Positions 19,363-36,087 of a stretch of DNA of 36,087 bases are shown here, one piece after another; the stretch's first letter is position 1; each line of letters starts with the position of its first letter. Source of the DNA: Acidobacteriaceae bacterium (lineage in GTDB: Bacteria; Acidobacteriota; Terriglobia; Terriglobales; Acidobacteriaceae); assembly GCA_036510715.1 (NCBI GenBank), contig DATCDL010000362.1, positions 1 through 36,087 of the forward strand. Direction: 5' to 3'. Position numbers and translations under genes: made by a program. The notes beneath the pieces were generated by a model that saw only the letters and a program-made list of their open reading frames with translations, was not told where the DNA came from and searched no databases.

Positions 19363-21168
19363 ATGTATGAAACCGAAGCAAATCGCAGGACTGAGTCAGA
19401 CCACGAGATCCCGCGAGATGTCTTGCGCAAATTTGGGGAACTGAGGAGAATCGGTCTGGAGCGCACGACCCTTCCCTGGAGCGAACACTGCACGGAGTGT
19501 GTTTGGCCTATCTGCTATTCGACCTGTGACCTTTATAGTCCACGCGAGGACCTCAAGTGCCGTCGCTTCGTCGAAGGAATGGTTAGAGTAGAGTGCTCCG
19601 ACGCGGTTAACTCATATCTGTTGAAGATCCAATTCAAGCGCTGGGGTAAACTACTGTCGCCAGGAAACGTGCACCTCCATTCAATCACACAGGCCGAACG
19701 AAGAGAACGACGGGATTACCAGATTGGGACGGTCCTGTATCAACTGCCCGTACCTCCGGGAATAAAGAGAGCAGTGACGGGTAAGAGATATAGCTTCAAG
19801 AAGAAGCTTGCCAGTCGGCCGGCAGGCGGTGGCCGTTTACCATCATCATTCCTGCTCGAGTGTTATAACCCTCAGTCGTATAGCATTCGACTCTCGCTAA
19901 CGATGAGGCCTGTTAACGAAGAAGATAAGGTACCGTTTCAGAAACTCATTGAGCTCACACCTGGCTATCATCAGGTGCGCGTGCCGATGAACGAAATCCA
20001 GCAAGTTCTGAACGTCCTTAATCCCTTCAATATAGAACTGATTCCTAATGATGTTGAGGATGGTACAACTCTTTATTTTGGCCTAATGGAGTTCGTACGG
20101 GAGGGTGGGCAGCTAGCAGACGAATTGAGAGGAATAAAATGCATAGTTTGGGACTTAGATAATACCCTTTGGGACGGCATTCTCGTTGAAGATGGTCCGC
20201 GCAATCTCAAGCTGAAACCCGAGATCACCGAGGTCATTCGGGAGCTAGATTCGAGAGGAATCTTGCACTCCGTCGCAAGTAAGAACGACCGGGACGACGC
20301 CATGCAAGTTCTCAAACAGTTCGAACTCGATGAATATTTCCTTTGCCCACAGATTTCGTGGGGGCCGAAGAGCGAAGGTATCAATGCAATCGCACGACAG
20401 TTGAACATTGGTAGAGACGCTCTCGCTTTTATAGATGATTCGCAATTTGAGTTAGAAGAAGTCAAGACCGTCTATCCTGAAGTTCGCGTTCTCAACGCGC
20501 TTCAATATCGATCTTTGCCCGAGATGAAGGAGTGCCAAGCGCCAGTTACTGCCGAGAGCAAGGAAAGACGGAAGTTGTATCAGGTTGAGGTGGAGCGGCA
20601 GAACCTTGGGGAAAGCTTCGGAAGCAATTACATCGCCTTCTTACGCCACTGCCAGATCAAGCTCACAATTGGCCCCATGACACAGAACAATATGGAGCGG
20701 GTGCATGAGCTAACTCAACGGACCAACCAAATGAATTTCTCTGGCAACCGCTACAATCGCCACGTTTTAGAAACCATACTCGCAACTCCGCATTTGGAGA
20801 CATGCGTCATCAACTGCGAGGATCTATTCGGCTCATATGGGATTGTCGGTTTTAGCATTATTGACATAAGAGAGCCTCGGATGACCGATTTGATGTTTAG
20901 TTGCCGGGTTCAGTCGAAACGGGTAGAGCACGCATTTCTCGGGCATATTATCCGGAAGTGTATTCGCGAGTCGGGCAGAGACTTCTTTGCGGACTTCCGC
21001 AAGACCTCGAGGAACGCTCCTTCCAGCAAAGTATTTGCCGACCTTGGGATGGAGGAGATAGGAGAATCGGAGGGCGTAAAATCGTTAGTGTTTCGTAAGA
21101 ACAAGCAGCTTAACGATGACGGAATAATCAGGATTATTGCGCAGGAATCTTCCTTGCGCGCGAATTAG
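19363..21168 (+). CDS. FkbH-like HAD-IIIC glyceryl-transferase/phosphatase with a Cys-rich N-terminal extension
   Basis: KCIVWDLDNTLWDG, SKND, ISWGPKS, FIDDSQFE, RVHELTQRTNQMN, FGSYGIVG and MFSCRV. Confidence 0.9.
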   Translation: MYETEANRRTESDHEIPRDVLRKFGELRRIGLERTTLPWSEHCTECVWPICYSTCDLYSPREDLKCRRFVEGMVRVECSDAVNSYLLKIQFKRWGKLLSPGNVHLHSITQAERRERRDYQIGTVLYQLPVPPGIKRAVTGKRYSFKKKLASRPAGGGRLPSSFLLECYNPQSYSIRLSLTMRPVNEEDKVPFQKLIELTPGYHQVRVPMNEIQQVLNVLNPFNIELIPNDVEDGTTLYFGLMEFVREGGQLADELRGIKCIVWDLDNTLWDGILVEDGPRNLKLKPEITEVIRELDSRGILHSVASKNDRDDAMQVLKQFELDEYFLCPQISWGPKSEGINAIARQLNIGRDALAFIDDSQFELEEVKTVYPEVRVLNALQYRSLPEMKECQAPVTAESKERRKLYQVEVERQNLGESFGSNYIAFLRHCQIKLTIGPMTQNNMERVHELTQRTNQMNFSGNRYNRHVLETILATPHLETCVINCEDLFGSYGIVGFSIIDIREPRMTDLMFSCRVQSKRVEHAFLGHIIRKCIRESGRDFFADFRKTSRNAPSSKVFADLGMEEIGESEGVKSLVFRKNKQLNDDGIIRIIAQESSLRAN

Positions 21169-21174
21169 ACCAAA

Positions 21175-21957
21175 ATGATGAGAGAAGAACTTGGGCTAAT
21201 TCGAAGGAAAGTGTTGTCATCAGTGTACCCGCGTCATGCTGCGTTGGGAACTCGCGGACCAATCATATCGTTTACCTTCGACGACTTCCCTCGGTCGGCC
21301 TTGACAGTTGGTGGACGCATACTTAACTCCTACGGACTTTGCGGCACTTACTATGCTTCTATTGGTCTGATGGATGGCGTAAATCATTTGGGTGATCAGT
21401 TTCGGCGCAAAGACCTAGACATCCTTCTGCGTGACGGCCACGAACTGGCAAGCCATACGTTCGCGCATATCTCATGTCGCAAGGTCTCGTGTTCTACATA
21501 CAGAGAAGACGTGAAAGAAGGCAGAAGAGCTATAGAAAGGATAACTGGGCGGCCGGATTTCGGTAATTTTGCATTTCCATTTGGGGCGGTCACGTTGAAT
21601 GCCAAGAGGTTGATCGGACAGGACGTGGTCAGTTCCAGGAGCATCTGGAGTGGTTGGAATGGTCCGCAGGTTGACCTCAATTTGCTGCGGGCCAACAGCC
21701 TATACGGTAATAGCGACAAATGCGCTCAAGTGAAGGAACTGATTCTGGAGAATGAGCGGCAAAAGAGTTGGCTCATTTTCTATTCTCATGATGTGTGTCC
21801 TGCACCGTCTCGATTTGGTTGTACGCCTGAGCTATTGCAATTCGCGATTTCGTTCGCATCAAGGCGGTGTGCGCGAATTGCGACGATAGCCGAGGTTGTA
21901 ACTGAATTAATTGCAAGCCCCCTAGACGAGGCTCGTGTTGCGGAAGCTTCGGCCTAA
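21175..21957 (+). CDS. Polysaccharide deacetylase (CE4/NodB family)
   Basis: ISFTFDDFP, GHELASHTFAH, FAFPFG and LIFYSHDV. Confidence 0.88.
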   Translation: MMREELGLIRRKVLSSVYPRHAALGTRGPIISFTFDDFPRSALTVGGRILNSYGLCGTYYASIGLMDGVNHLGDQFRRKDLDILLRDGHELASHTFAHISCRKVSCSTYREDVKEGRRAIERITGRPDFGNFAFPFGAVTLNAKRLIGQDVVSSRSIWSGWNGPQVDLNLLRANSLYGNSDKCAQVKELILENERQKSWLIFYSHDVCPAPSRFGCTPELLQFAISFASRRCARIATIAEVVTELIASPLDEARVAEASA

Positions 21958-22136
21958 TGTGAATTACTCAGAGCAGTTCTGGTGGGTCTTTAATTGGGCG
22001 GGTACAATTTTTTCTAGCTGTGCGATGAGACGCGCCCAAGTGCTTGTTCAAAGCGTATCTTTCGCTAAGTAGAAAGTTAGTTACTTACATTGACGGTCCA
22101 GGGTAGGGGCTGAGCGCGATCGCGGCACCGGAAGGA

Positions 22137-23123
22137 ATGTATAAAGTGAAATTGTCTATCGTGATTCTATGTTGGAACGATCACAGGGTCATAGTTGAGT
22201 GCTTACGTTCTATCTGCTCGCGAACCCATTCAATCGAGTTCGAGGTCATTGTTTCCGACAACGGATCAACTGATGGATCTCCGGAGCTCATAAGGGACGC
22301 GTTTCCTCAAATTCGCGTTATCAAGAACAACGCAAACCTGAGGTTTTCAAAGGGCAATAACGTTGGCATCCAGGCGAGCATAGGTGAATATATCTTGATC
22401 TTGAATCCGGACACGATTATCCACGAAGGCTCTTTAGATCGGTGGATTGAATTTGCCGAGCGGCATCCTGAAGCCGGAGGGTTTGGCTGTCGGGTCTTGA
22501 ATCTTGACGGGTCCTATCAGAGTTCGGCGCGACCGTTCCCAACGATCTGGCGCGGGTGGCTGGCAGCCCTCCGATTAGGAATTCTCGGTTATGTCTCCGA
22601 CGCTTTTATTTCCGAGGAATACATTCAATGGAAGGGCGACACCGAACGACTGATCGACTGGCACTCCGGATGTTGCCTGATGGTGCGTTCTGATCTGCTT
22701 AAGAGGTTAGGCGGCTTTGACGAGCAATTTCAATATTATTATGAAGACGTCGATCTGTGTCACCGTATCTGGGATGCTAACTACCCAATTGTCTTCACTC
22801 CCGAAGTGACCATCACGCATCTGGGGGGGCAGTCAACGATTGAACGATTTCCGATCGCATTTGAGCTGGACAAATACCGTAACCGCTACCGCTATTTTTA
22901 TAAGTATTTTGGCAGAAAAGGAGTTCGTCATTGTCGCCGATATTCGCTAGTGCGAATCTGGATTCGTCAGGTCGGATATCGACTCCTCTCGCTTGTGGAG
23001 CGTTCGGATCGACTCAGAAAGCGCCTCGATTTGTACAATGCTGCGATTGATTGGAACAGGCGCGTTGACCCGGTTCAGCTTGTGGAGAAGGGAGAGGAGC
23101 CCGAGTTGCAAAACGTTGCTTGA
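22137..23123 (+). CDS. Glycosyltransferase family 2 (WbbL/rhamnosyltransferase-like)
   Basis: SIVILCWN, VSDNGSTDGS, ILNPDT, SGCCLMVR and GGFDEQF..YYEDVDLC. Confidence 0.9.
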   Translation: MYKVKLSIVILCWNDHRVIVECLRSICSRTHSIEFEVIVSDNGSTDGSPELIRDAFPQIRVIKNNANLRFSKGNNVGIQASIGEYILILNPDTIIHEGSLDRWIEFAERHPEAGGFGCRVLNLDGSYQSSARPFPTIWRGWLAALRLGILGYVSDAFISEEYIQWKGDTERLIDWHSGCCLMVRSDLLKRLGGFDEQFQYYYEDVDLCHRIWDANYPIVFTPEVTITHLGGQSTIERFPIAFELDKYRNRYRYFYKYFGRKGVRHCRRYSLVRIWIRQVGYRLLSLVERSDRLRKRLDLYNAAIDWNRRVDPVQLVEKGEEPELQNVA

Positions 23124-23434
23124 TTAGCGAGTCAATCTCTGATACCGTAAGGGTAGCGTCGGAGATATGACCGATTCGATTTGGTATCCTTTTTGTGTGA
23201 TAGCTTCACCCGGCAGTATGTGTCAGTTGGAACGAGTGGTGGGTGGGCGTGAGACATTCGGTTCTTCCTATGCGGACGCCTTGAAAGCCGTATTCGTCTC
23301 CTGTGGAATTGTTGATTTTGTACGACGTTGAAAGTGCGACCTTTCCAACTCATGGACAGGGTAGGCCTGGATCATCTGCCTGCATGCGACGCCCCCATGC
23401 GAATCGAGCGGGATGCACTCGTACAAAATAGCCA

Positions 23435-25060
23435 ATGCCGCCCTTTTCGCTCTGTTTTTTACGCACGTTTCATTACACGTCTCAAGAGGTGATGTTTGTG
23501 TTCTCGAAAATGCCTGCTTTTGCTTCCCCCGGCCCGATTGTCTCAACGTCTTCTTATGCTTCCGAAGTTAGCATTCGATCGCAATTCCTTAGATACCTGA
23601 TCCTAATGATTGTTGCTTGCCTGTCGATTTCTCAGGCCTTTGCGGCATGCCATGCAGTTAGTCCCGCTGGTTCAGGTTCAAAGACCGGAGCCGATTGGAA
23701 TAACGCCCTCGCAGGTTTGCCTGGAACCCTGACGCGAGGCGACATCTACTACCTAGCTGATGGGGTCTACGGGAATCATCTCTCCATCACCGCGGGCCTG
23801 TCCGGAACGACCACAATTGAACTTCGAAAGGCTCAATCGTACGACAATGGATCCGCCTGTACGACATCAATTGCTGCGGGTTGGAATGCGTCGACAATGG
23901 GTTCGGCACAGGCCATCTGGCGCTCTACCGGATCGGGTGGGATTGTCAGTCTTGGTACCAGTGGTGGCTACCTGATTTTCAACGGGAATGGCAACAACGC
24001 AGGCACTAATGAAGTCGGTTGTGGTGGAGTTCAGGCGAATCCGCCATCAACAATGAAGGGAGCTTCCCCCACTCCCTCTGCCTGCGGAATTCTGATTGAT
24101 AACTCTACCTGCACTAGCACCGCGACCGATGGCTGCGATGGCGGGAGTGGCGTCATCAATGGCGGTGGAAGCGGGATCGTCTGGGAGTCAGTTGAATGGA
24201 AAGGTCAGGGACTCAACTCGAACGGTAATAACAATTCCGAAACATACTTCTGGTTTGCCAGCGGTGGGAGCCTCTCCGGTGTCAGAATTTCTCACAGCTA
24301 TTTGCACAATGCCAGCACGACCTACTTCACGGTCGTAAGTGGCGGCTGGAACGCGGGTAGTTTCGATCACAACTATGGATGGGGCATATTTGATGGCTCA
24401 GTCAACCATGGTGAGGCGGTGCAGCTTCAAGGATCGAATGGGCAGACAACCAAGGATGTCATTCATCACAACATCTTTCGCGACCAGCAGACCAACGGGG
24501 ACGTTGTAGCAGTGATTACGGGAACCGAGACCTACGACTTCTACGACAATGTAGACGTTTGTTCTGCGGGTGGTACGTCAACAACTTGTCGCCACAATGA
24601 TGGCGTAATTGGCTGCTTCAATAGTCAGACGTGTTCGGGAGTCAATGTCTTCAACAATACCTTTAGCGAACCCAGCAATTGCGGCTGGAACGTCACCGGC
24701 GGACCAAGTACGATGACGGTGAAGAATAATATATTCTTCAACTGCGGATCGGTGGGGATGTCTGGCGGAACGAACACAGTTGACTACAATTCCTACTTGA
24801 ACTCTAACCAGGGGACCGTCGGAGCACATGACGTGTCGATTGCAAGCGGCGCAACAAACCCATTTATTTCATTGGGCGTCGGCAATGTTCGACTCAATGT
24901 AGATGGGTCAAACTACAACAACCGCGCCAGCCTTGGCAGTCCCTATGACACCCTCGACCTCTATGGGAGCGCTTTCACGACTGACCGTGGCGCGGCGCAA
25001 ATCGGAGGTGCAACCCCAGCTCCTGCGACCAATTTGATCTACACGACTGTACCTCAGTAG
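23435..25060 (+). CDS. Secreted Gly/Asn/Ser/Thr/Cys-rich protein, probable right-handed beta-helix (pectate-lyase-like); true start probably downstream of 23435
   Basis: Signal-like LILMIVACLSISQAFA-A. GSGSKTGADWNNA and RGDIYYLADGVY are typical beta-helix N-caps. Asn-ladder motifs IHHNIF, VFNNTF, VKNNIF and DYNSY; DLYG...DRGA near the end. Confidence 0.65.
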   Translation: MPPFSLCFLRTFHYTSQEVMFVFSKMPAFASPGPIVSTSSYASEVSIRSQFLRYLILMIVACLSISQAFAACHAVSPAGSGSKTGADWNNALAGLPGTLTRGDIYYLADGVYGNHLSITAGLSGTTTIELRKAQSYDNGSACTTSIAAGWNASTMGSAQAIWRSTGSGGIVSLGTSGGYLIFNGNGNNAGTNEVGCGGVQANPPSTMKGASPTPSACGILIDNSTCTSTATDGCDGGSGVINGGGSGIVWESVEWKGQGLNSNGNNNSETYFWFASGGSLSGVRISHSYLHNASTTYFTVVSGGWNAGSFDHNYGWGIFDGSVNHGEAVQLQGSNGQTTKDVIHHNIFRDQQTNGDVVAVITGTETYDFYDNVDVCSAGGTSTTCRHNDGVIGCFNSQTCSGVNVFNNTFSEPSNCGWNVTGGPSTMTVKNNIFFNCGSVGMSGGTNTVDYNSYLNSNQGTVGAHDVSIASGATNPFISLGVGNVRLNVDGSNYNNRASLGSPYDTLDLYGSAFTTDRGAAQIGGATPAPATNLIYTTVPQ

Positions 25061-25150
25061 GTAGAACTTTTTTTCAGGAATCTCAGATGAATCCTCTCGA
25101 TTTGGTATCCCGTGTCAATGGTTATCGTACCGAGAGTATGTCGTGACGTC

Positions 25151-25190: not shown

Positions 25191-25342
25191 ACCATGACTG
25201 AATATGACATTTGAGGTTATTCATTCAGCTTTCCTTTCCGCTGGGCGTCTTACGTCGCCTCCCTTGATCAGGGAAAAGATCTTACGGCTAACTGGTTTTG
25301 GTCAGTAACGAAGGCTGGCCGTTTATACGATGGACAAATCAT

Positions 25343-26722
25343 ATGGAACCCGATCACTACCGCTTCGGAGGTGGCTCAGCTACCACCGTGCTTCATCCCA
25401 TAGTGGCGGTGGCGATGCTGCTTGCGATCATCCTTATTCTGCGCCTGCCACTCAAGAGGGTATTAGCACCACTGCTGCTTGCGATCTTCCTTATTCCAAA
25501 AGGGCAAGTTATAGTTCTGGCCGGCATACACTTAAATGCTTATCGAGTCATCCTGCTGGCGGGACTGGCTCGATGGGCAATCTCGAGACGATCGTCTCCA
25601 CTGGCTGGCGGGTTCAATTCCATTGACTGGTTGTTCACTTTGGCGGCCGTCTCTTTCTTCATCATTTTCTCACTCCAGTACATGGCGACACAGGCACTGA
25701 TTAAGGCTCTCGGGGATCTACTGGATGCGATGGCCGGCTATTTTGTCCTACGATTCCTGATCCGCGACCGGGAGAGTATCCGAGAAACAGTCAGAGTCTT
25801 TGCGCTCATTGCCATTATCGTAGGAATCTGCATGCTCAATGAGCAACGCACGGGGGTGAATGTCTTCGGGCTGCTTGGCGGCACTCTAAGCATCTCCGAA
25901 ACGCGGAACGGAGCCATTCGGTCGATGGGCCCGTTTTTACATTCGATACCCGCCGGAGCGTTTGGGGCAACACTTGTCCCATTGCTCATCTGGCTTTGGT
26001 CGGATGGGAAATTCCGAATATTAGCTGCACTCGGATTACTTGGGGCAACGGCCATGGCCGTCACTTGCCACTCCTCTACCGTGCTTGGTTGCTATGTTGC
26101 GGGTATTTTTGGCCTTTGCATGTGGCCTCTCCGTAACCAGATGCGCGTAATCCGATATGGACTTTTAATAGTGGTAATAGGCCTGCACTTGATCATGAAA
26201 GGCCCCGTCTGGTCGCTCCTGGAGCACATAGATTTGACAGGTTCATCGGAGAGTTTTCATCGTTATCAGCTCGTCGATACCTTCATTAGACATTTTAATG
26301 AGTGGTGGTTGTTGGGCACTCAGAACAATGGTTCCTGGGGTTGGGAAATGGCTGATACTTCCAATGAGTATGTGACATATGGCGTGGAGGGTGGGCTGCT
26401 AACTCTTGTTCTATTCATAGCTCTCATTTCGAAGTGCCTTGGAAAGCTTGGGACTAAACGAAAAATCGTCGCGGGCCACCGCGGTGAGGAATGGCTCTTC
26501 TGGTGCCTTGGGACTGCTATGTTTGCGCACTTGGTGGTCTTCATTGGAATTGATTATTTTGACCAAATGCTATTTGCTTGGTTTGCATTGTTGGCCATAA
26601 TCGCCACGGGCGTCTCTATACCCACAAAGGGGGGGAGACCAAGACTGATTACCCGAGGAGACCGTGACAGCCAGTTTGCCAACCACGAGTTCGACGAAGC
26701 ACTCCAAGTGTCCGGGTCTTGA
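25343..26722 (+). CDS. Wzy polymerase / O-antigen-ligase-like polytopic membrane protein
   Basis: About 11-12 hydrophobic segments; periplasmic motifs RNGAIRSMGPFLHSI, SSESFHRYQL, WWLLG and NEYV.YGVEGGL. ATG 25343 is the preferred start. Confidence 0.75.
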   Translation: MEPDHYRFGGGSATTVLHPIVAVAMLLAIILILRLPLKRVLAPLLLAIFLIPKGQVIVLAGIHLNAYRVILLAGLARWAISRRSSPLAGGFNSIDWLFTLAAVSFFIIFSLQYMATQALIKALGDLLDAMAGYFVLRFLIRDRESIRETVRVFALIAIIVGICMLNEQRTGVNVFGLLGGTLSISETRNGAIRSMGPFLHSIPAGAFGATLVPLLIWLWSDGKFRILAALGLLGATAMAVTCHSSTVLGCYVAGIFGLCMWPLRNQMRVIRYGLLIVVIGLHLIMKGPVWSLLEHIDLTGSSESFHRYQLVDTFIRHFNEWWLLGTQNNGSWGWEMADTSNEYVTYGVEGGLLTLVLFIALISKCLGKLGTKRKIVAGHRGEEWLFWCLGTAMFAHLVVFIGIDYFDQMLFAWFALLAIIATGVSIPTKGGRPRLITRGDRDSQFANHEFDEALQVSGS

Positions 26723-26951: not shown

Positions 26952-27992
26952 ATGGCAAATACTATGACGAATGTGGGATCGACCGTTGATGAAAGAATCG
27001 TCCGGAGCAGGGGTTGTCCGTGCTGCGGTCAGTCTAGCTTCACACGCTGGATGCAGGTTCCCGAAAGGTCCCAGGCTGGAGCTAGCGGCTACGAACTGCT
27101 CCGTTGCCCCTCGTGCTCACACACTTGGCTGGACAATCCGCCAATTCCAGAGGAAATGAGCTATTACTACGGACCTAATTACCATCGAGCTATCAGCCAC
27201 GCCGGAGAATCATCAAACAAGCGCTGGATACGGCAGCTACGGGTTATATCTAAGTACAAGGTTGACGGGTGCATCCTCGACATCGGGTGTAGCTCCGGCG
27301 CATTCCTCGGATACCTTCGGGGCGGTCCTTGGAAGCTCCACGGGATCGAGCCGAGTCTAAAAACAGCAGAAAGAGCCCGTGCAATGACGGGTGCAGATAT
27401 TTTCGCGGGGGAGGTGGAAAATGCAACCTTCGCACCTAATAGCTTTGATGTCATCACTTGTTCCGATGTCATGGAACACCTCTACGAACCAAGCGAGGTG
27501 TTTCGCAAGGTTCAAAGCTGGCTAAAGCCAGGCGGTATCTTCTATGTATTTGTACCCAACATCAAGTCTTGGGAAGCGCGAATCTTCCGTTCGTATTGGT
27601 ACGGGCTAGATTCGCCCCGGCACCTTCATCATTATTCGGCAGAATCGCTAGCCGGTCTTGCTAGGTCTGTAGGTCTTCGCCAGGTGCGTATGGTCACCCC
27701 GCCTGGACGTTATGTAGAACAGAGTACTTGGATATTGCTGGATGGCTTGGCTAGCAGAGCCGGTGTAAGTTGGACGCCATCGAATTTGACCGCCGAGCCC
27801 GGGATAGTTTGGAAAGTATTGCGGAAAGCACAACGGCTTAGTGTTGGGGCGTTATATAGCGCGGTAGCTTCGTACTGTGGAGCCGGCCCCAGCCTTCAGG
27901 CAGTGTTTCAAAAGACCGCTGCGCCTGATGTCGAACAAGAGAAGCCTGTGGGTCTGCAAGATCTGACCAAGCTGGTGAAGGTGTCCGCGTAG
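26952..27992 (+). CDS. Class I SAM-dependent methyltransferase with an N-terminal zinc ribbon
   Basis: CPCC...CPSC, ILDIGCSSG, FDVIT..DVMEH, LKPGG.FYVFVPN and PRHLHHYS. Confidence 0.9.
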   Translation: MANTMTNVGSTVDERIVRSRGCPCCGQSSFTRWMQVPERSQAGASGYELLRCPSCSHTWLDNPPIPEEMSYYYGPNYHRAISHAGESSNKRWIRQLRVISKYKVDGCILDIGCSSGAFLGYLRGGPWKLHGIEPSLKTAERARAMTGADIFAGEVENATFAPNSFDVITCSDVMEHLYEPSEVFRKVQSWLKPGGIFYVFVPNIKSWEARIFRSYWYGLDSPRHLHHYSAESLAGLARSVGLRQVRMVTPPGRYVEQSTWILLDGLASRAGVSWTPSNLTAEPGIVWKVLRKAQRLSVGALYSAVASYCGAGPSLQAVFQKTAAPDVEQEKPVGLQDLTKLVKVSA

Positions 27993-28104: not shown

Positions 28105-29571
28105 GTGAGCGTCTCCCACCGACTTAAAATTGTGGCCAACCGCGTCTTACAGGGCGAGAGCCTTAGGGCCAAAGCGGCGCGTGGCGGCGCGTGGCTGGGA
28201 AGCGGCAGCTTTGCTGAGCAGGTGAGCCGCTTTGCCCGGAACATGTTGCTGACTCGGTTGCTGGCTCCAAGCGCATTTGGCGCCATGGCGATTGTATTGT
28301 CCTCGTCTTCCCTTGTATCGTCCTTTTCCGATGTTGGGCTCTGGCCAGCGGTGATTCGGAACCCGCGCGGAGGAGACGACGCGTACCTCAATGCTGCGTG
28401 GTGGCTGGGCATCGGACGTGCGATTGGCATCTATGCTTTGATCTTTGCAGCGGCCCCTTTGGTCTCCCGCTTTTACGGAATGCCAGACCTGTCCATGTTG
28501 CTCCGAGTGGCTTTATTGAGCATCGTCCTCGATGGCATGATAAGTCCCCGTTCCAAACTTGCGCAAAAGGAGATGAAGTTCGGGAAATGGGCATTCATCA
28601 GCAATGGCGGCGGAATTTGCGGCGTAGTCCTAACAGTAATTCTCAGCTTTGTTCTTCGAGATGTGAGGGCGCTCGCGATCGGTTATTGCTGCGAGAATGC
28701 ATTTCGGTGTCTATTCTCTTATATTCTGTTCCCTGGTTTGCCGTCTCTCAAGTGGGACAGCCACGCTATTGGTGACCTTCTAACATTTTCAAAAGGGATG
28801 CTCGGTTTATCTTTTCTCAACTTGATTTTTGCGCGCGCCGACATCTTTGTGTTGGGGAAACTATATTCCCCTGAAGCATTGGGAATTTACACGATGGCTG
28901 TGTACCTGGTTCAGACCCCCTCGAGCTTCCTGATTAACATACTCGGTGTAACTCTCTTACCTGCATTCTCGCATGTCCGGGAGGACACCGAGCGCGGTAA
29001 CCGCATCCTTTCGGAGGTAACGTCCTGGATTATCCTTCTTGGGTTGCCGGCGGTGGTGATGATTTGGCAATGTGGGTCGTCTCTCCTGACGGTCACTTAT
29101 GGGGCTCGCTATGCCGCGGCTGCCGGGGCGCTAGCCGTTGCGGCAGGGGTGGCCCTCCTAAATACACTAAACTCCCTGGTGACCAATCTGTTTTACGCCG
29201 CCGGGCGCCCTGCACTTCATCGCCGCGCCGTAGGCGCATCTGCAGTTGTCATGATGATCGCGATTTATCCCGCCTGTAAATACATGGGATCGGTAGGAGG
29301 CCAATTCGCAGCGCTCCTCGCGATCTCTGCCAGCTATGCCCTTCAGATTGTGAGAGCGCGTAGTATCACGGGCTTATCTGTTCTTCAATACGGAAGGGCC
29401 GTTGTGCCAGCCATGCTGGTAACTGCAGTGATTCTTATCGTCGGAGTTGGCGAGCGTTTTCTAGGATTGGCAACCAGGCCGCTAGCTAACATTGCCGTTG
29501 CCGCTGCCGCCTGCCTGGTAGCTTATGCCCTGAGCGTGCCGGCTTTCATGAGAATTAGGGAGATCGCATAA
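28105..29571 (+). CDS. wzx: Wzx-type oligosaccharide flippase
   Basis: LLTRLLAPSAFG, FSDVGL..AVI and ADIFVLGKL....LGIYTMA motifs, with about 12-14 TM segments. Confidence 0.88.
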   Translation: MSVSHRLKIVANRVLQGESLRAKAARGGAWLGSGSFAEQVSRFARNMLLTRLLAPSAFGAMAIVLSSSSLVSSFSDVGLWPAVIRNPRGGDDAYLNAAWWLGIGRAIGIYALIFAAAPLVSRFYGMPDLSMLLRVALLSIVLDGMISPRSKLAQKEMKFGKWAFISNGGGICGVVLTVILSFVLRDVRALAIGYCCENAFRCLFSYILFPGLPSLKWDSHAIGDLLTFSKGMLGLSFLNLIFARADIFVLGKLYSPEALGIYTMAVYLVQTPSSFLINILGVTLLPAFSHVREDTERGNRILSEVTSWIILLGLPAVVMIWQCGSSLLTVTYGARYAAAAGALAVAAGVALLNTLNSLVTNLFYAAGRPALHRRAVGASAVVMMIAIYPACKYMGSVGGQFAALLAISASYALQIVRARSITGLSVLQYGRAVVPAMLVTAVILIVGVGERFLGLATRPLANIAVAAAACLVAYALSVPAFMRIREIA

Positions 29572-29667
29572 GGGATTGAAACTCGTCGGGTCGTATCCTC
29601 GTCCCGGATGAATCGCCTTCAGTCGTCTGTACTTCTTACTCTGTAGCACCGGAAAGAAGATTCAACT

Positions 29668-30357
29668 ATGCAGTCACTTTCAAATAAGCCTGGAGCTCAT
29701 TTTGAAGACCCGCTATCGTATTTCTTCAGAGCCAGAACGAAGATATATACCCTGTGGCTCAGAGCGATCTATCCATTTGTCTCAATAGGGCGTAACCTGT
29801 CGATCCATTACGCCATTAAACTAAGCAGGTGTGTGGCCCACCAAATCAAGCTGGGCAACTCTGTGATCATTTGGGAAGATGTGTGGCTCTATGTCCTTCC
29901 CGATCTCGGGAACAATGTAAAGATCGTCATCGACGATAACTGTTCTATAGGTGCCAGGAGCACAATATCTGCGAAGAACTCTATTCATTTGGAAGAGAAC
30001 GTCATAATGGCAACCTCCGTACTTATCCAAGACCATAATCACGCCTACGAGGACATTAACCGCCCAATCCGGGACCAGGGTGTTACAGCCGGAGGCCGAA
30101 TTCGGATAGAGAGAGGATGCTGGATTGGTCAGGGAACAGCAATAGTGTGCAATGAGGGCGAAGTAGTGATCGGTCGCAATAGCGTCATTGGTGCGAACGC
30201 CCTTGTTACAAGGAGTTGCCCTCCGTATTCCGTGATTGTGGGTAACCCCGGCAGGGTTGCAAAGCGATTCGATGCAGCAAGAGGTTCCTGGGTTGGCGGA
30301 GAAACTGGTCGTCCCATGCTCTCGGAATTTGTCCGTCAGGATCTTCGGCAGCTTTAG
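29668..30357 (+). CDS. Hexapeptide-repeat (LbH) O-acyltransferase, paralog 1
   Basis: IQDHNHAYED, CWIG and IGRNSVIGANALVT...PPYSVIVGNPGR. Confidence 0.88.
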   Translation: MQSLSNKPGAHFEDPLSYFFRARTKIYTLWLRAIYPFVSIGRNLSIHYAIKLSRCVAHQIKLGNSVIIWEDVWLYVLPDLGNNVKIVIDDNCSIGARSTISAKNSIHLEENVIMATSVLIQDHNHAYEDINRPIRDQGVTAGGRIRIERGCWIGQGTAIVCNEGEVVIGRNSVIGANALVTRSCPPYSVIVGNPGRVAKRFDAARGSWVGGETGRPMLSEFVRQDLRQL

Positions 30358-30381
30358 ACCCCAGAGGAAGAGACAACTAGA

Positions 30382-31161
30382 ATGATGCAGCCCGGCCGCG
30401 GATCGCCCGCTCGATTCGAAGACCCAATCAATACTATTCTTCGATGTGTCAACAAGCTCTACAGCATGTGGCTGCAGGCGACATATCCTTTTGCGGGTAG
30501 CGGTCGCAAACTTTCCATCCATTACCCCTGTGAAATGAGCAGGCGGGTCGCGCACCAGATCAAGCTAGGCAACTTTGTGCTCATCTGGAAAGACACGTGG
30601 CTGAATATTGTGCCCGGGCCTGATAATGAGTTGAAGATTATCATCGACGACAACTGCGTTATCGGTCGCCGAAACTCGATTTCGGCCAAAAACTCAATTC
30701 ACATAGAGCGTGACGTAATACTCTCAAGCTCAGTGCTAATCCACGACCACGCGCATGCTTACGAAGACATAAACCTCCCGATCCGCGCTCAAGGTGTTAC
30801 TCCAGGAGGAAAAATTCGAATAGAGCAGGGGTGTTGGATTGGCAATGGTTCATCAATTATGTGCAACGGTGGAGAACTGGTGATCGGTCGCAATAGCGTC
30901 ATTGGTGCTGATGCAGTGATTACTAAAAGCGTTCCCCCCTATTCGGTGGTTGTGGGAAACCCTGGCAGAGTTGTTAAGCATTTCGATCTGAATACGCAAG
31001 TCTGGGTTGAGGCTCCAGTTCGTTCGATGGGAGCGGAACTCCCAAGACACGTCCCGGGCAAGACAGATCTGGTGGACCCGCCACACTGCGCGATTCTTCG
31101 TCAAGAGCCGGAAGCACATTCTAGGTGGTCTGTGGATACGAAGGAGGCAACAAATGGATGA
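30382..31161 (+). CDS. Hexapeptide-repeat (LbH) O-acyltransferase, paralog 2
   Basis: IHDHAHAYED, CWIG and IGRNSVIGADAVIT...PPYSVVVGNPGR; colinear with paralog 1. Confidence 0.88.
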   Translation: MMQPGRGSPARFEDPINTILRCVNKLYSMWLQATYPFAGSGRKLSIHYPCEMSRRVAHQIKLGNFVLIWKDTWLNIVPGPDNELKIIIDDNCVIGRRNSISAKNSIHIERDVILSSSVLIHDHAHAYEDINLPIRAQGVTPGGKIRIEQGCWIGNGSSIMCNGGELVIGRNSVIGADAVITKSVPPYSVVVGNPGRVVKHFDLNTQVWVEAPVRSMGAELPRHVPGKTDLVDPPHCAILRQEPEAHSRWSVDTKEATNG

Positions 31162-31420
31162 GCAGCAAACGCGTCTCGCGGGATGTTTCTTGGCGGTTTT
31201 CCCCGAACTAAGCTCCGACAGAATTATGGAGGCCAGCTCGATCTCTGTGCAGAACTGGGATTCTGTGGCGGGTGTTACCCTTCTCACGGTTGTCGAAGAA
31301 GAGTTCGGGATCGATATCGAAGACGACGACTTGGCCAGGTTCAATTCGTTCAAGGGATTTCTGAGCTACCTGCAAGAGACAGAGAACGGTGGACAATCCT
31401 CTGGTGACCGAGACGCGTAA
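31154..31420 (+). CDS. Acyl carrier protein (WDS type), 88 aa
   Basis: ATG 31154 follows RBS AAGGAGG (31141-31147). The sequence NWDSVAGVTLLTVVEEEFGIDI carries the phosphopantetheine serine motif. It is the 3' part of the track ORF 31007..31420. Confidence 0.88.
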   Translation: MDEQQTRLAGCFLAVFPELSSDRIMEASSISVQNWDSVAGVTLLTVVEEEFGIDIEDDDLARFNSFKGFLSYLQETENGGQSSGDRDA

Positions 31421-31938
31421 GAACCATGGTCTCTCGCAAGTCGAAGGGAACGAAATGATGTCAACGGTCGAGCGAAGTGGTGTATGACGTTGCAGCACGG
31501 AGCGGTATCTGCGTGGCTTAAACGTTGAGAGACGCCACGATTCGACTGAGGCGTTTATCCCATAGGTGTTCTGGCCGAATGGAGATGCTGAGGATGAAAT
31601 TGAGAACAGTGGCTGTTCTATGTGTTTTATCCCCACACCATTGACAGAAATGAGGTCGACTTGTCGCGACCTTATATTGGAAACGCCCATTTTGCATTGA
31701 AGTGGTGAGCACAGTCTTCACTGAACTGACCGAAAGACACGACGGAATCACTCGCATTCGTGAGAGGCGAATTAAGGCCCTTTTGACACCACCGATCAGC
31801 GGGCGCTTCGTGTTAGGGCACTTCGCCATGGCGTTCCCTGGACCAGAATTCTTCGCGCAAGCGGCATCGGCTGAACCGCAAGCGGCTCCGCAGCCCGGCG
31901 CCTAACCCATAACCCCTAACCCTGAAGGAAGGTAAATC

Positions 31939-32616
31939 ATGAACACGACGCTACTTATCCCGCAACAGCCGCAGAACCACGCACTGGACTCTTCGATCAA
32001 ACAACAGATCAACAATATGATCGATGATCTTATGGCTTCATTGCCTGATATCAAAGATCTGACGAGTGCCGAGCGGCGAGGGATCATTGCACGTTATACC
32101 GCTGTGTTGGAGGGTAATTTCATCTACTGGATGACCGCGACTCTTCTCGCTGTTAAGTCAGAAGAGGCGCGCCCGATTCTCCTGGATAATCTACACGAGG
32201 AGGTGCGTGATGCCCATCCGGCAATGATGCGAAGATTTGCGATGGCCGCACACGCTTTCCCAACAGACGCGGACGCGATCGACGTCCATGACGATATGAC
32301 CAACGTTCGCCTGTTTCTAGGTAAGCTCTCGGGAGTGCAATCAGTCCTTACAATGGCCTTCTTCGAAGGGTTCATACAGAGGTTCATGGGCTATTTGGCG
32401 GCCCTTGCCAAAGCACAGGGCTCGGATGATATGGAATACACGGATGTGCATGGCGTCTGCGATATTGCGCACACAGACGGCCTCTTCTGCGCGCTTTCCG
32501 TTGAGATGGGAATCAATCCCCTTGATCCTGAGATGGATCTGTTTGAAGGCGTCTATCTCCTTCGCACCCTGATCGAGAATATCGTCTTCAACCGCGTTGA
32601 AGCACTTTCAGCCTAA
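31939..32616 (+). CDS. Heme-oxygenase-like diiron enzyme (HDO; CADD/PqqC-like iron-containing redox enzyme)
   Basis: Predicted helical protein with candidate ligands NLHEEVRDAH, FFEG and HGVCDIAH, matching the E..H / E / HxxxDxxH set of CADD-type proteins. RBS GAAGGAAGG. Confidence 0.72.
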   Translation: MNTTLLIPQQPQNHALDSSIKQQINNMIDDLMASLPDIKDLTSAERRGIIARYTAVLEGNFIYWMTATLLAVKSEEARPILLDNLHEEVRDAHPAMMRRFAMAAHAFPTDADAIDVHDDMTNVRLFLGKLSGVQSVLTMAFFEGFIQRFMGYLAALAKAQGSDDMEYTDVHGVCDIAHTDGLFCALSVEMGINPLDPEMDLFEGVYLLRTLIENIVFNRVEALSA

Positions 32617-32637
32617 GCATCCAGAGGAGGAAACGCG

Positions 32638-33456
32638 TTGCGGACTCAGTCTCAAATCAAAGCTAAAGTGCCGGAGCATGCCAGATACTTTCCGGTTCCT
32701 GGTGCGCACCTTTACACCGTGCTGCACCAGGTGCGGGATCCGGTTGCTCGTGTTCTCCTGGTCGGAGCATTTGCGTCGGAACGGCATTTTTCTTACTCGC
32801 CATGGGTCCGGTGGGCTCGATATTTGGCCGCAAGACAGATTGAAGTTCTTCGCTATGATTATCGCGGTCTGGGTGAGAGCACGGGCATTTTCGAAGAGAT
32901 GAGTTTTGACACTTGGAGTGAGGACGTCCAACTTCTAGCCAAATGGTTTGTGGGTAGTTCGTCTAGCGTGCCTCTCCTGCTTCACGGACTCGAGATCGGC
33001 GCCATCCTCGCCGGTAGGAGTTTCCATGAGGGAACAGGCGACGCGCTGCTCCTGTGGTCGCCTCCCGCTAACGCAAATCAGGCGCTCCGCTCGAGCCTTC
33101 TACACTGGGCGGGCTTGGGACAACTGAATGATTCTCCCGAGAACCGGAAGACCGCCTCTGAATATATCCAGCAGCTAGAGCAAGGTTCCCTTATCGAAGT
33201 GCAAGGATATCAATGGTCGAGCCGTCTCTGGCGTGACTCTTTTCATTTCAACCTGCCGGACACCCTGCATACCGAAGACTCCTCCTGCGAGTCACAAAAG
33301 AAGCCAGTCAAGATAGTGAAGCTTGGAAAGGAGGCGACCCCTCTAGTTAAACCGCACTTTGGGAATGACGAAGCTAGGGACTTTAGCTGGTTGTACTCAT
33401 ATCATTACGATTGGGTCGTCGAGGCCTTAGCCCTCCCGAACCGGAGGGAACAATGA
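32638..33456 (+). CDS. Alpha/beta-hydrolase-fold protein lacking the nucleophile (resembles exosortase-system-associated hydrolase 2)
   Basis: GAFASER, LRYDYRGLGESTG, elbow LHGLEIGA, LLLWSP and IEVQGY. Confidence 0.75.
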   Translation: MRTQSQIKAKVPEHARYFPVPGAHLYTVLHQVRDPVARVLLVGAFASERHFSYSPWVRWARYLAARQIEVLRYDYRGLGESTGIFEEMSFDTWSEDVQLLAKWFVGSSSSVPLLLHGLEIGAILAGRSFHEGTGDALLLWSPPANANQALRSSLLHWAGLGQLNDSPENRKTASEYIQQLEQGSLIEVQGYQWSSRLWRDSFHFNLPDTLHTEDSSCESQKKPVKIVKLGKEATPLVKPHFGNDEARDFSWLYSYHYDWVVEALALPNRREQ

Positions 33457-34439
33457 CGGAGTCAATTGAAAGACGTGAGTTGTTTGTGTTGGATGGCTCT
33501 GATGTTCTTATCCGGGGCACCTATCATAAGGCTTGCGAAGACAACTCAGATGTACGCCCAAACCTGATTGCAGAAGATCGCATTGGCGTCGTATTTCTGA
33601 ATTCCACGTCTCCGACACGAGCAGCGAATGGCGATACGGCGGTCTATTTGGCAGAGTCGTTTGCAGAATGCGGCTATCCGACGTTTCGACTTGATCTGCC
33701 TGGATTCGGAGACTCAGAGGGAGACCATCCAGAAGATTTGATTGGTTTCATCAGCCGAGGAGGGTATGCAACCATAGCCTCCTCCAAAGTTAAAGAGCTC
33801 GTCGCACGATTCAATCTGTCCGGAGTAGTCATAGTGGGACACTGCGCTGGCTCAGTATCCGCACTCTACACAGCGGCTATCAGCAGAGAGTGCAGGGGCA
33901 TCGTCTTAATAGGTCCCTTCTTCCACTTGACGCGGCCAATACGACCCACGAAGATTCGGCGAAATCTGAAACTCTGGGCACTCCACAGCCGGCTCGGGAG
34001 TGTTTTCAGTAGGATCTTTGAGGTTCTGAATGAGGTTCGCCTGCCCGTCCGCGCAAGAGGTCTCCCGAAGAATGCGAATCGCCCACTTCTTCGTTGCTGG
34101 AAGAAGATGGCTCCCGCAGGTCTGCCTATCCTAATTCTCAAGGGACCCGACAGGAGGACTTCCGGCATGAAACCAGTGGACCGTGAATTCGACTACCTGA
34201 AGTATCTTCTACGGGTGGCAGGTCGCGGGAGTCAGGTTGTCGTGAAAGTTACGGACGGCGCCAATAATGCCTTCGCGAACCGAAAGGGCCGAGCGGCGGT
34301 CCAGCAGCATACTCAACAATGGCTAAATGCTTGTTTCCCGTTAATGAAACATGAAGTGGATGTTGTAGGAACCTTGGGTTCCGAACGCGGAGAAAGTAGA
34401 AAGCACAATAAACTCCACGAGAGTTACTTGCACGAATAG
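33453..34439 (+). CDS. Alpha/beta-hydrolase-fold protein with Cys at the nucleophile elbow (resembles exosortase-system-associated hydrolase 1)
   Basis: ATG 33453 overlaps the upstream stop (ATGA) after GGAGGG. Motifs FRLDLPGFGDSEG, elbow VGHCAGS and late DGANNAF. Confidence 0.75.
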   Translation: MTESIERRELFVLDGSDVLIRGTYHKACEDNSDVRPNLIAEDRIGVVFLNSTSPTRAANGDTAVYLAESFAECGYPTFRLDLPGFGDSEGDHPEDLIGFISRGGYATIASSKVKELVARFNLSGVVIVGHCAGSVSALYTAAISRECRGIVLIGPFFHLTRPIRPTKIRRNLKLWALHSRLGSVFSRIFEVLNEVRLPVRARGLPKNANRPLLRCWKKMAPAGLPILILKGPDRRTSGMKPVDREFDYLKYLLRVAGRGSQVVVKVTDGANNAFANRKGRAAVQQHTQQWLNACFPLMKHEVDVVGTLGSERGESRKHNKLHESYLHE

Positions 34440-34470
34440 CATTCTCCACGGAAAGTAGGCAATCACTCAT

Positions 34471-34716
34471 ATGAACATTCGATCAGAGATCATAAACCAA
34501 TTCACCCAGGTGGCCCAAGGTCAAGGCTTACCCCTGGCGCCACTAACCGACGATCTGGAACTTCTGGATTCCGGTCTCGACTCACTATGCTTTGCAATCG
34601 TCGTTGCCCGGCTTGAGGGATCGATTGGAGTAGATCCCTTCACAGCCTCCGAGGATGCTCACTTCCCTATAACCTTTGGCGAGTTTGTCACCTTTTATGA
34701 AAATGCCGCAAACTAA
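34471..34716 (+). CDS. Acyl carrier protein (GLDS type)
   Basis: 81 aa, acidic, with LLDSGLDSLCFAIVVARLE. Confidence 0.9.
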   Translation: MNIRSEIINQFTQVAQGQGLPLAPLTDDLELLDSGLDSLCFAIVVARLEGSIGVDPFTASEDAHFPITFGEFVTFYENAAN

Positions 34717-36087
34717 TTGGATTTCACTTTCGAACGCACTGAGCGTCGCCGGCGATTTGTCCGGTCGCTCTGTGTTCGGTGCGGAAGCGAGCATAGCCCT
34801 CAGCGACCTGGTCGACGGAACCGCTCTGTATGGTCGAGGTGACGAGCTTTGCGGACGATCTGTGCTCGTTGCAACGACGAGTCAGTTCACTACAGCGTCG
34901 GCTCTGATCGAGCTAGATGGTTTAGCACGCAGAATTATTCTTTGTCCCCCTGATTTGCCTCTCGAGCATCTTCCTTTCGTCATCGACACCGCCGCGGTAG
35001 ATGCAGTTGTCTCCGATCGGAAGAAGTTACTTGAACTGGACAATCACCACTCTGTATATTTCAGCCCTTGCAGCCGAAATATTGTGCCCCGAAACTATGA
35101 TTGGAACGCACAGTACCAAACGGAATGGATACTTCTCACCTCCGGGACAACGGGACGGCCGAAGCTGGTTGTGCACACCTTAGAGAGCTTGGCTGGCGCA
35201 ATTCAGCGCTCGCACACTCTAGCAGAACCGGTCATTTGGAGTACCTTCTACGACATTCGCCGTTATGGTGGACTCCAGATATTTCTTCGCTCCATTCTCA
35301 CCGGAAAATCGCTGGTGCTCTCGAATTCACAAGAGTCGATGGCGGACTTCCTTGCTCGGGCCGCCTCACACGGAGTCACTCACATTTCCGGAACTCCTTC
35401 CCAGTGGCGTCGCGCGTTGATGAGCCCTGCAGCTCACGCTATTACCCCCGAATATGTTCGACTGTCTGGAGAAGTTGCCGATCAGGCAATTCTGAACCAG
35501 CTTCAATGCTTCTATCCGCACGCTAGAGTCGCGCACGCTTTTGCCTCGACGGAGGCCGGTGTTGCATTTGAGGTAAACGATGGCGTCGCTGGTTTTCCTG
35601 CCAGCGCGATCGAGCAAACCCAGAATGTCGACATGAAGGTCGAGGATCATACGCTGCGGATCCGATCAGCCCGCGCCGCTAGTTGCTATCTGGGAGACCA
35701 AGCTCCGGTTCTGAAGGGCGCGGATGGCTTTGTAGACACTGGCGACATGGTCGAATTGCGAGATGGTCGCTATCACTTCGTCGGTCGCCGCGACGGAATT
35801 ATCAACGTCGGCGGTCTCAAGGTATACCCCGAAGAAATCGAAGCAGTTATCAATCGCCACCCTGAGGTGCAGATGTCGCTTGTCCACGCGAAGAAGAATC
35901 CAATGACAGGGGCTCTGGTCGTCGCAGATGTTGTCCTAACATCAGAGGCGTTACCCACCAGCCGCGATGTTCGTGCGCTGCAGAACGACATCCTGCTGCT
36001 TTGTCGCGAAGCACTCTCCACTTACAAGGTCCCGGCGCTCATCAATTTTGTCCCCGCCCTGGCAGTCGCTGAATCAGGAAAGATGAT
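34703..36087 (+). CDS. AMP-dependent synthetase/ligase (ANL family), 3'-truncated; absent from the ORF track because its stop is outside the window
   Basis: Manual translation MPQTNWISLS... gives the P-loop LLTSGTTGRPKLVVH, then RLSGE, FASTEAG, VDTGD, GRRDGIINVGGLKVYPEEIE and YKVP...ESGK. An alternative in-frame ATG lies at 34697. Confidence 0.9.
   Translation, partial: MPQTNWISLSNALSVAGDLSGRSVFGAEASIALSDLVDGTALYGRGDELCGRSVLVATTSQFTTASALIELDGLARRIILCPPDLPLEHLPFVIDTAAVDAVVSDRKKLLELDNHHSVYFSPCSRNIVPRNYDWNAQYQTEWILLTSGTTGRPKLVVHTLESLAGAIQRSHTLAEPVIWSTFYDIRRYGGLQIFLRSILTGKSLVLSNSQESMADFLARAASHGVTHISGTPSQWRRALMSPAAHAITPEYVRLSGEVADQAILNQLQCFYPHARVAHAFASTEAGVAFEVNDGVAGFPASAIEQTQNVDMKVEDHTLRIRSARAASCYLGDQAPVLKGADGFVDTGDMVELRDGRYHFVGRRDGIINVGGLKVYPEEIEAVINRHPEVQMSLVHAKKNPMTGALVVADVVLTSEALPTSRDVRALQNDILLLCREALSTYKVPALINFVPALAVAESGKM

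Follow-up and report, generated by a model that had tools for sequence, protein, structure and literature searches.

How does an acidobacterium modify the sugars of its extracellular polysaccharide, and with what? The question is raised by a 36,087-nucleotide stretch of DNA from an Acidobacteriaceae bacterium (GCA_036510715.1), here termed the window, which is the entire contig C362 of an assembly of 4.3 Mb that is 70% complete. A polysaccharide locus of the Wzx/Wzy type starts at position 2770, and all 33 open reading frames (ORFs) taken as genes share one orientation; all window genes given below are on the + strand. The original prediction saw in this locus an assembly line built on carrier proteins, and every gene it named lies where it had been placed and on that strand: FkbH, two acyl carrier proteins (ACP1 of the WDS type and ACP2 of the GLDS type), an AMP-forming ligase, the heme-oxygenase-like enzyme HDO, a pair of hydrolase-fold proteins (HydA and HydB) and twin LbH acyltransferases. 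That there are two carrier systems stands, as does the absence of polyketide synthase (PKS) and nonribosomal peptide synthetase (NRPS) genes, none of which was found by family searches of the window or its 13-kb continuation. We hold with moderate confidence that two modules, here called A and B, likely decorate the repeat unit of this Wzx/Wzy-type locus with non-acetyl acyl groups; the likelihoods given for this reading and for its rivals overlap in part.

Of what genes does the machinery around the second carrier consist? HDO, the hydrolases and the ligase had been taken as the whole of a cassette starting at 31939, and this proved too narrow. The ligase gene (34697..36087, with in-frame ATG codons at 34697 and 34703) does overlap the end of ACP2, by 14-20 nt, and is cut by the end of the window. 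The last 141 nt of the window overlap another contig of the same assembly (G000:C419), which completes the gene. The join is real because metagenome contigs cover both of its sides: a 4,456-nt contig of run X2 comprises window positions 33717-36087 and C419 positions 10802-13027, and a 613-nt contig of run X4 spans the join as well. Peat and soil metagenome runs carry DNA near-identical to the window; no RNA run is among those listed with such DNA. The genes that follow the ligase on C419 are, in order, a short-chain dehydrogenase/reductase (SDR), a long-chain acyl-CoA synthetase (NF006134, 748 bits against a cut-off of 625), a pyridoxal phosphate (PLP)-dependent decarboxylase of group II, MetY, MetA, RmlC, an epimerase, RmlD, LhgO and an aldehyde dehydrogenase (ALDH). 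The original prediction had looked to the downstream genes for an SDR, which is thus present, and for a phosphopantetheinyl transferase, which is not found in the locus; one ACPS-family gene is located on contig C482.

The set HDO-[HydA-HydB]-ACP2-ligase-SDR-acyl-CoA ligase-PLP decarboxylase-MetY-MetA is one conserved cassette, which constitutes module B. In the genome collection 276 HDO relatives were confirmed; the loci analysed are the best 78 of 276, and 58 of these have full flanks. In the 58 loci, ACP2 is present in 57, the ligase in 53, MetA in 52, the acyl-CoA ligase in 49, the SDR and the decarboxylase in 48 each, MetY in 46 and the Hyd pair in 44, and the complete set of eight core cassette genes in 42; FkbH is present in five and ACP1 in two. 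The gene order is repeated in 80 metagenome loci found via HydB (the best 80 of 432), and it is also kept in members whose HDO identity is 51-60%.

Variants of the cassette are found as well. Nine reduced cassettes (L035, L042, L043, L045, L050, L054, L061, L008 and L202) keep HDO-HydA-HydB-(ACP2)-MetA and are without most of the ligase-SDR-acyl-CoA ligase-decarboxylase-MetY part; complementation in trans is possible, as several genomes have two cassette copies. Six other loci (L006, L005, L028, L020, L071 and L059) have oxidative or assembly genes in or beside the cassette, i.e. a P450, a luciferase-like monooxygenase, a 2OG-Fe(II) oxygenase, a flavin oxidoreductase with an ATP-grasp gene, or an NRPS. 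RmlC, an NAD epimerase, RmlD and L-2-hydroxyglutarate oxidase come after MetA in locus L001 (2490-6263, - strand) and likewise in several syntenic loci, and an aminotransferase together with an aldehyde dehydrogenase often follows MetA.

The first gene of the cassette, HDO (31939..32616), encodes a heme-oxygenase-like dimetal enzyme assigned by fold, its PF14518 score of 26.9 bits being under the 28.9 cut-off. The model (pLDDT 90.4) has the heme-oxygenase-like helical fold, and the top structures are CADD, HrmI, UndA, BesC and RohS. CADD (8va9; Z 19.1, rmsd 2.7, 198 residues aligned) is tied with Npun_F6505 (3b5p, Z 18.4) and HrmI (9n1a, Z 18.1). With these three HDO shares the fold and the full ligand set of three His and three carboxylates, but the identity is only 10-17% and the carrier-protein cassette context is different. 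The ligands E88, H93, E143, H171, D175 and H178 (E-x4-H, E, H-x3-D-x2-H) are present in 78/78 rows and are kept in 60-66 of 68 rows of distant relatives. HDO is predicted to be a two-iron oxidase, as yet uncharacterised. No PDB sequence match, no plasmid match and no Foldseek match at E<=0.001 were found. The family comprises 5,137 homologues; the nearest named relatives of the gene are Acidobacteriaceae, and a single-protein query detected it in 0/400 genomes of an even draw of the phylum. In one syntenic locus (L015) there are two tandem HDO genes with a 394-aa ORF between them.

What might supply the substrate? MetY (TIGR01326, 603 bits, cut-off 495) and MetA (NF003776, 396 bits, cut-off 358) are clear family members. 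In MetA C147, H239 and E241 are invariant (51/51), and the residues aligning with the homoserine site of the solved MetA are retained; their catalytic and homoserine-site roles are assumed here. Of five genomes checked, two carry a housekeeping metY-metX pair as well as the cassette MetY, and one has the housekeeping pair only. Cassette MetY (49 rows) and housekeeping MetY (3 rows) can be told apart at 62 positions; these may reflect ancestry and were not taken as evidence of a new substrate. MetA remains with HDO-Hyd-ACP2 in nine loci where MetY was not found, and it has no plasmid match at 1e-30. MetA may use acyl-ACP2, as is hinted by the retention of MetA with ACP2 in the reduced cassettes. 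The catalytic residues of the decarboxylase are invariant. An aldehyde-synthase role for this enzyme was set aside, the loop Tyr, whose role we presume, being kept in 54/54.

Does the cassette belong to polysaccharide loci? The original prediction was to fall if the cassette starting at 31939 proved to be usually found without such genes, which is not the case. Glycan markers lie beside HDO in 51/58 loci as compared with 1/40 control windows, although the former figure is inflated, as the markers derive from HDO loci and the loci are the best 78 of 276. Genes of the window and of the HDO loci served as markers, with self-hits removed and kin kept, and the controls were 40 evenly spaced 20-kb windows from two of the HDO genomes. 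Even taxonomic draws, which partly overlap the 78 HDO loci, yielded 15 cassettes (8/300 genomes of the family and 7/400 further genomes of one class); a glycan marker is found within the 20-kb stretch in six of these and, with wider flanks, in nine, and two others stop at contig edges without one. The link of the cassette to polysaccharide genes is strongly enriched, yet not obligatory.

Three plasmids, one each from Qingshengfaniella, Haematobacter and Azospirillum, also have relatives of the ACP2-ligase-SDR core next to glycan genes (3 of 14 matches inspected). Identities are 33-51% for the ACP and 43-51% for the SDR, and the core is preceded by an LbH gene or a hydrolase gene. This suggests that ACP-ligase-SDR generally provides acyl donors and that the precursor genes joined to it are exchangeable. 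The Azospirillum brasilense Sp7 plasmid unit (L082:6545-14937) has pseI, a hydrolase, ACP, ligase, SDR, FabH and flagellin genes.

Module A is centred on FkbH (19363..21168), which belongs to a subfamily with a predicted N-terminal CBM-like beta-sandwich followed by the HAD-IIIC and C-terminal domains. The protein matches TIGR01686 (240 bits, cut-off 146.65), has the motifs WDLDNT at 263 and FSCRV at 512, and aligns with BF1531 (3slr). FSCR/MSCR is found in 109/109 full-length rows and DLDN in 104/109; the C-terminal Cys presumably has the role that it has in other FkbH proteins. The 250-residue N-domain has no Pfam match, 1,279 homologues and five invariant Cys (C43, 46, 51, 55 and 66). In the model (pLDDT 82.7) it is a predicted beta-sandwich; CBM11/CBM30 align with Z 8.8 (rmsd 3.8, 141-148 residues aligned), the top row being a non-CBM chain with Z 9.2. 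The Foldseek E-value is 4.5e-4, and the Cys loop has a pLDDT <50.

The gene next to FkbH is an HfsH-like polysaccharide deacetylase of the CE4 family (21175..21957; PF01522; NF050820 157 bits, below the cut-off of 400) with motifs TFDD, SHTFAH, FAFPFG and YSHD, and it is in this position in 12/12 loci with an FkbH ortholog. The gene before FkbH is MT1, a class I SAM methyltransferase, in 6/12 loci and AsnB (asparagine-synthase-like) in the other six. In the window MT1 (18561..19316, Pfam Methyltransf_11) is directly upstream of FkbH, and it is a candidate O-methylase of the glyceroyl group. Two methyltransferases had been counted in the segment that begins with FkbH; MT2 (26952..27992, Pfam Methyltransf_23, class I SAM-dependent, with a CxxC N-terminus) is within it, and MT1 lies just outside.

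Is ACP1 (31154..31420, PF00550) the acceptor of FkbH? ACP1 is ~10 kb from FkbH in the window. The glyceryl-ACP1 route of the original prediction has in its favour that WDS ACPs lie directly beside canonical FkbH genes in five other loci (L052, L125, L126, L166 and L187), which with L005 are the only loci having ACP1 homologues. Among the 12 loci with the present FkbH subfamily, a WDS ACP was seen in L005 and in L026, in the latter beside a second, canonical FkbH, and was not found in the fetched stretches of the other ten. ACP2 is present in eight of the 12. The remaining four are without HDO; no standalone ACP was found in the fetched stretches around them, in some cases with little sequence on one side, and two of them hold NRPS genes. 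In this locus ACP1 is a plausible acceptor of FkbH, without being a fixed part of the subfamily, since a WDS ACP is found in only 2/12 loci. Full-length FkbH orthologues are found in 8/50 HDO-carrying genomes, each time in the locus of the cassette; in the 300 even-draw genomes of the family, FkbH occurs in four, HDO in eight and both in none, as chance predicts. Modules A and B are separate gene sets that also occur apart.

How would an acyl group leave ACP2 (34471..34716, GLDS motif; Ser38 in 72/72)? HydA (32638..33456) has the alpha/beta-hydrolase fold with a Glu at the nucleophile elbow (GLExG), which is found in 44/46 relatives; by sequence it is predicted to be a non-catalytic partner. 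HydB (33453..34439), of the same fold, has the elbow GHCAG with Cys131, and the Cys is kept in 45/45 genome relatives. The family His, present in 44/45 genome relatives and 114/125 rows overall, aligns with GxxH(T/S)F of solved hydrolases, and an Asp is kept in 40/45. In the window HydB these positions are Asn272 and Gly154. Sequencing error was rejected, as the codons are identical in contigs of runs X2, X4 and X6; recent pseudogenisation is unlikely, given an open reading frame and the same change in relatives at 57-82% identity. The protein belongs to a clade of ten (FastTree support 0.96), eight of which are without the His. Natural variants between samples are non-synonymous at 5/10 listed sites, too few to test selection. 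Alpha/beta-fold proteins with a Cys nucleophile serve as acyl shuttles of the SyrC/CmaE kind. The proposal of a Cys-hydrolase transferase is, judged by these residues, plausible for the HydB family and doubtful in this genome, because the family His and the nearby Asp are absent.

The other possible exit is by the LbH enzymes. LbH1 (29668..30357) is a hexapeptide acyltransferase of the MAT/GAT/WbbJ type with a DHNH motif; LbH2 (30382..31161), its paralogue (60% identical), has DHAH. The two had been thought to be coupled to ACP1, the first 8 nt of which lie within the end of LbH2. This coupling is not general: genes of the LbH1/2 clade directly precede ACP2 in three loci (L006, L026 and L033), as judged by gene order and by an LbH tree of which, owing to long-branch warnings, only the starred sets were used, and relatives are also found in carrier-free loci. 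This makes LbH1/2 candidate transferases for the ACP2-bound acyl group. Of the 68 loci that have both ACP2 and the ligase, 44 have the Hyd pair in or beside the HDO-ligase interval, 10 have an LbH gene inside it, 14 have neither and none has both (Fisher 7e-6, kinship ignored). One cassette (L155), beside a UpxY-Wza locus (L156), has two HDO genes and three tandem HydA-HydB pairs; three such pairs in one cassette are the pattern expected for acceptor-specific transferases.

From genes, motifs, folds, synteny and co-occurrence, which were observed directly, we infer the individual reactions, their order and a glycan as acceptor. In module A the deacetylase would remove the N-acetyl group from an amino sugar, and FkbH would convert 1,3-bisphosphoglycerate to a glyceryl thioester, the source of an N-glyceroyl group that MT1 perhaps O-methylates; ACP1 would be a plausible but dispensable acceptor. 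In module B, MetA and MetY would use homoserine to make a C4 precursor of the O-acyl-homoserine/homocysteine type, and the decarboxylase and HDO would turn this into a short, possibly sulfur-bearing acid. How could the amine left by the decarboxylase become a carrier-bound acid? HDO may oxidise it, as the fold neighbours HrmI and RohS are N-oxygenases; alternatively, the aminotransferase and aldehyde dehydrogenase that often follow MetA may do so. Loading of the acid on ACP2 by the ligase would be followed by its reduction by the SDR and by transfer of the acyl group to the glycan, the transferase slot being normally occupied by HydA/HydB or LbH. In this genome LbH1/LbH2 would be the likelier exit, because HydB is without the His.

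What speaks against these two modules acting on one glycan? For module A, the CBM-like match of the N-domain is middling (Z ~9) and gives no indication of function. The frequency of FkbH in HDO genomes (8/50) is above the 4/300 baseline, so that the modules are linked in this lineage. The mutual exclusion of Hyd and LbH depends on the interval chosen, since in L011, L012 and L032 an intact Hyd pair has LbH1 immediately before it; LbH1 is closest to MAT/GAT/CAT enzymes, which use acetyl-CoA, and LbH genes are also present in carrier-free loci (L142 and L143). For module B, the cassette MetY is the sole copy above the cut-off in 2/5 genomes, one of them this incomplete assembly. Only 9/15 even-draw cassettes have a glycan marker nearby, and four of the 15, one of these with a Hyd pair, have no marker ~27 kb to either side (~55 kb in all). 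The long-chain acyl-CoA synthetase and the amine-forming decarboxylase fit an acyl-amide lipid equally well.

The last points are those expected if the product of module B is a metabolite or lipid in its own right, whose genes are often co-regulated with those of the polysaccharide and which is not attached to the glycan. This is possible, if somewhat unlikely, and a similarly tentative example of such a product is the acyl-amide of a decarboxylated non-standard amino acid made by MetY. Some loci have an inserted P450, flavin monooxygenase, 2OG oxygenase, class III aminotransferase or NRPS. MetY-type enzymes are also found in natural-product pathways, RtxA of rhizobitoxine being one, and FUB7 is among the PDB matches. 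The substrate native to FUB7 is named as O-acetylhomoserine in the available text of a preprint (bioRxiv 10.64898/2026.10.15.759323). Against a free product, however, glycan enrichment persists in the even draws (9/15, compared with 1/40 control windows, which are narrower), the ACP2-ligase-SDR core is found in glycan loci on the three plasmids without the amino-acid genes, and the cassette has no conserved dedicated exporter. The best reading of module B is that a homoserine- or homocysteine-derived acyl group is built on ACP2, and this could be a non-glycan metabolite.

The wiring first proposed, in which FkbH loads ACP1, LbH1/LbH2 pass the glyceryl group to the glycan and HydB is the transferase for an ACP2-bound acyl group oxidised by HDO, is doubtful. 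Apart from the LbH2-ACP1 overlap, it draws on the WDS ACPs that adjoin FkbH, three times with a neighbouring LbH gene (L052, L125 and L166), and on the single FkbH match in this 70%-complete genome. L005, the other locus with ACP1 upstream of HDO, also has this FkbH and LbH1, and FkbH-to-ACP loading is an established activity in the passages available of PMC7489565. On the other side stand the ten of 12 loci of this FkbH in which no WDS ACP was found, the missing His272 and Asp154 of the window HydB, and the LbH1/2 relatives that precede ACP2 in three loci.

Ordinary tailoring, with LbH1/2 as acetyl-CoA-dependent O-acetyltransferases, MetA/MetY boosting methionine and SAM, and the carrier genes handling e.g. 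3-hydroxybutyryl, agrees with MetY and MetA passing the standard NCBIfam cut-offs, with LbH1 being nearest MAT/GAT and with the FAS-like ACP, ligase and FabG genes described as common in glycosylation islands in the text available of PMC4875605, but it is improbable, for within 10 kb of HDO homologues of MT1 occur in 0/58 and of MT2 in 7/58 loci against 52/58 for MetA, MetA stays with HDO-Hyd-ACP2 in the nine loci where MetY was not found, and HDO and the decarboxylase are left without explanation in a cassette that has no FabH.

A more specific form of the two-module reading can also be put forward, in which the five-Cys FkbH is a carrier-free N-glyceroyl transferase acting on the freshly deacetylated amino sugar and the HDO cassette adds a homocysteine-derived, sulfur-bearing acyl group to the same polysaccharide by a diiron reaction on a carrier-bound substrate. 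As a whole this is speculative and unlikely to hold in every part. If true, the glycan substituent and the HDO chemistry would be new to the papers searched.

How do the two modules compare with known systems? The tetronate route of Vibrio cholerae O1 consists of RfbK/L/M/N/O. That route and the ACP/ligase/FabG sets of enterobacterial flagellin glycosylation islands, in the parts available of PMC4875605, have in common with module B a standalone ACP, an AMP ligase, a reductase and an acyltransferase, with no PKS; the differences here are HDO, the group II PLP decarboxylase, MetY, MetA and the long-chain acyl-CoA synthetase, and that LuxC/LuxE are lacking. Acylation of glycans by carrier and ligase is thus of an already known kind (PMC4875605, from the same parts). 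FkbH/OzmB-type glyceryl-ACP loaders, as given in the passages available of PMC7489565, are alike in the TIGR01686 match, the HAD DLDN, the C-terminal SCR and a standalone ACP in the locus, and differ from the present protein, which has the extra CBM-like five-Cys N-domain and a fixed CE4 deacetylase partner. Unlike tetronate and methoxymalonyl-ACP pathways, the locus has no PKS, FabH or two methoxymalonyl dehydrogenases; no FabH-like enzyme or acyl-ACP dehydrogenase pair was found in the window or C419. In Campylobacter jejuni NCTC 11168 di-O-methylglyceroyl-pseudaminic acid is formed (Cj1295), and in the available passages of PMC3068675 the authors hypothesise removal of the N-acetyl group and then substitution. 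The O-methylated glyceroyl on an amino sugar and the idea of deacylation followed by substitution are alike; there, a flagellin glycan and an aminopeptidase-like enzyme are involved, and here a Wzx/Wzy polymer and a CE4 deacetylase. Those passages (PMC3068675) name neither FkbH nor an ACP.

The best models for HydB and HydA are those of the XrtA-associated hydrolase 1/2, ligase and decarboxylase set (TIGR03100, 03101, 03098 and 03099). We take the layout of that set to be similar, with ACP, ligase and decarboxylase genes accompanying two alpha/beta-fold proteins, one of Cys type and one nucleophile-less, in exopolysaccharide loci. The scores, however, are far under the cut-offs (HydB 44/168, HydA 64/203, ligase 71/592), which the intact L012 relatives of HydA/HydB fail as well; the decarboxylase here is of group II, and HDO, MetY and MetA are added. 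To our knowledge the XrtA set is itself uncharacterised. Literature searches, with most subscription journals outside their coverage, turned up neither the gene set of the HDO cassette nor the FkbH architecture: no paper was found that describes the HDO cassette or the CBM-like five-Cys FkbH, or that names the TIGR03100/03101/03098/03099 models.

From 2770 on, the genes of the locus are a UpxY-like antiterminator, Wza, Wzz, an ATPase, a tyrosine kinase, an initiating transferase, the Gfo/LbH/DegT genes, GT4, GT2s, the deacetylase and the flippase. The Wzx/Wzy assignment rests on matches to Bac_transf, Polysacc_synt_3, Poly_export, tyrosine kinase, GT2 and GT4, and for Wzy on position and hydrophobicity only. 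The putative Wzy polymerase (25298..26722), so called from its hydrophobicity and position, is a multi-pass membrane protein of no family that is kept between GT2 and MT2 in syntenic loci. The Wzx flippase is at 28105..29571 (PF13440, 192 bits) and a GT2 glycosyltransferase, assigned by family match, at 22137..23123. A 541-aa Gly/Asn/Ser-rich protein (23435..25060) has no Pfam/NCBIfam match and has homologues in syntenic loci; it is probably secreted. The trio of Gfo/Idh/MocA dehydrogenase, LbH and DegT aminotransferase genes (10978-13735) resembles what we take to be the WbpB/D/E route to 2,3-diamino sugars, and the Gfo protein best matches UDP-GlcNAc 3-dehydrogenase, below the cut-off. By analogy with that pathway, the trio suggests that the repeat unit contains a 2,3-diamino sugar.

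A 717-aa protein (15127-17280) has CE4-like motifs (LTIDDPW, HGDTHAH), hydrophobic ends and no Pfam/NCBIfam match. Six syntenic loci have it, conserved at 42-65%, between GT4 and GT2, and its distant relatives come after the FkbH-ACP-LbH units of L052, L125 and L166. At 1-2029 there is an open-ended repeat protein with choice-of-anchor D domains (NF012200), with a GC content of 62-66% as against ~51% for the locus. The 518-nt gap between ACP1 and HDO (31421-31938) has a 67-codon ORF of no family, and relatives have variable inserts at this junction. A scan of 29400-36087 for promoters and terminators gave chance levels (5 vs 4.6 and 6 vs 6.0).

What does the locus mean for the biology of these bacteria? 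Acidobacterial exopolysaccharides are barely characterised. The available part of one study gives monosaccharides, pyruvate and methoxyl groups from FTIR and NMR (PMC5259719). The FkbH-deacetylase pair suggests, in a way that can be tested, how N-glyceroyl sugars may be made. A syntenic locus is present in a cultured strain, Tunturiibacter lichenicola MP8S11 (L012/L120), in which HydB is intact and His-bearing (L012), and the Azospirillum brasilense Sp7 plasmid unit offers a tractable model for the chemistry of the ACP-ligase-SDR core. The cassette gives the large orphan HDO family defined partner enzymes and a short list of candidate substrates.

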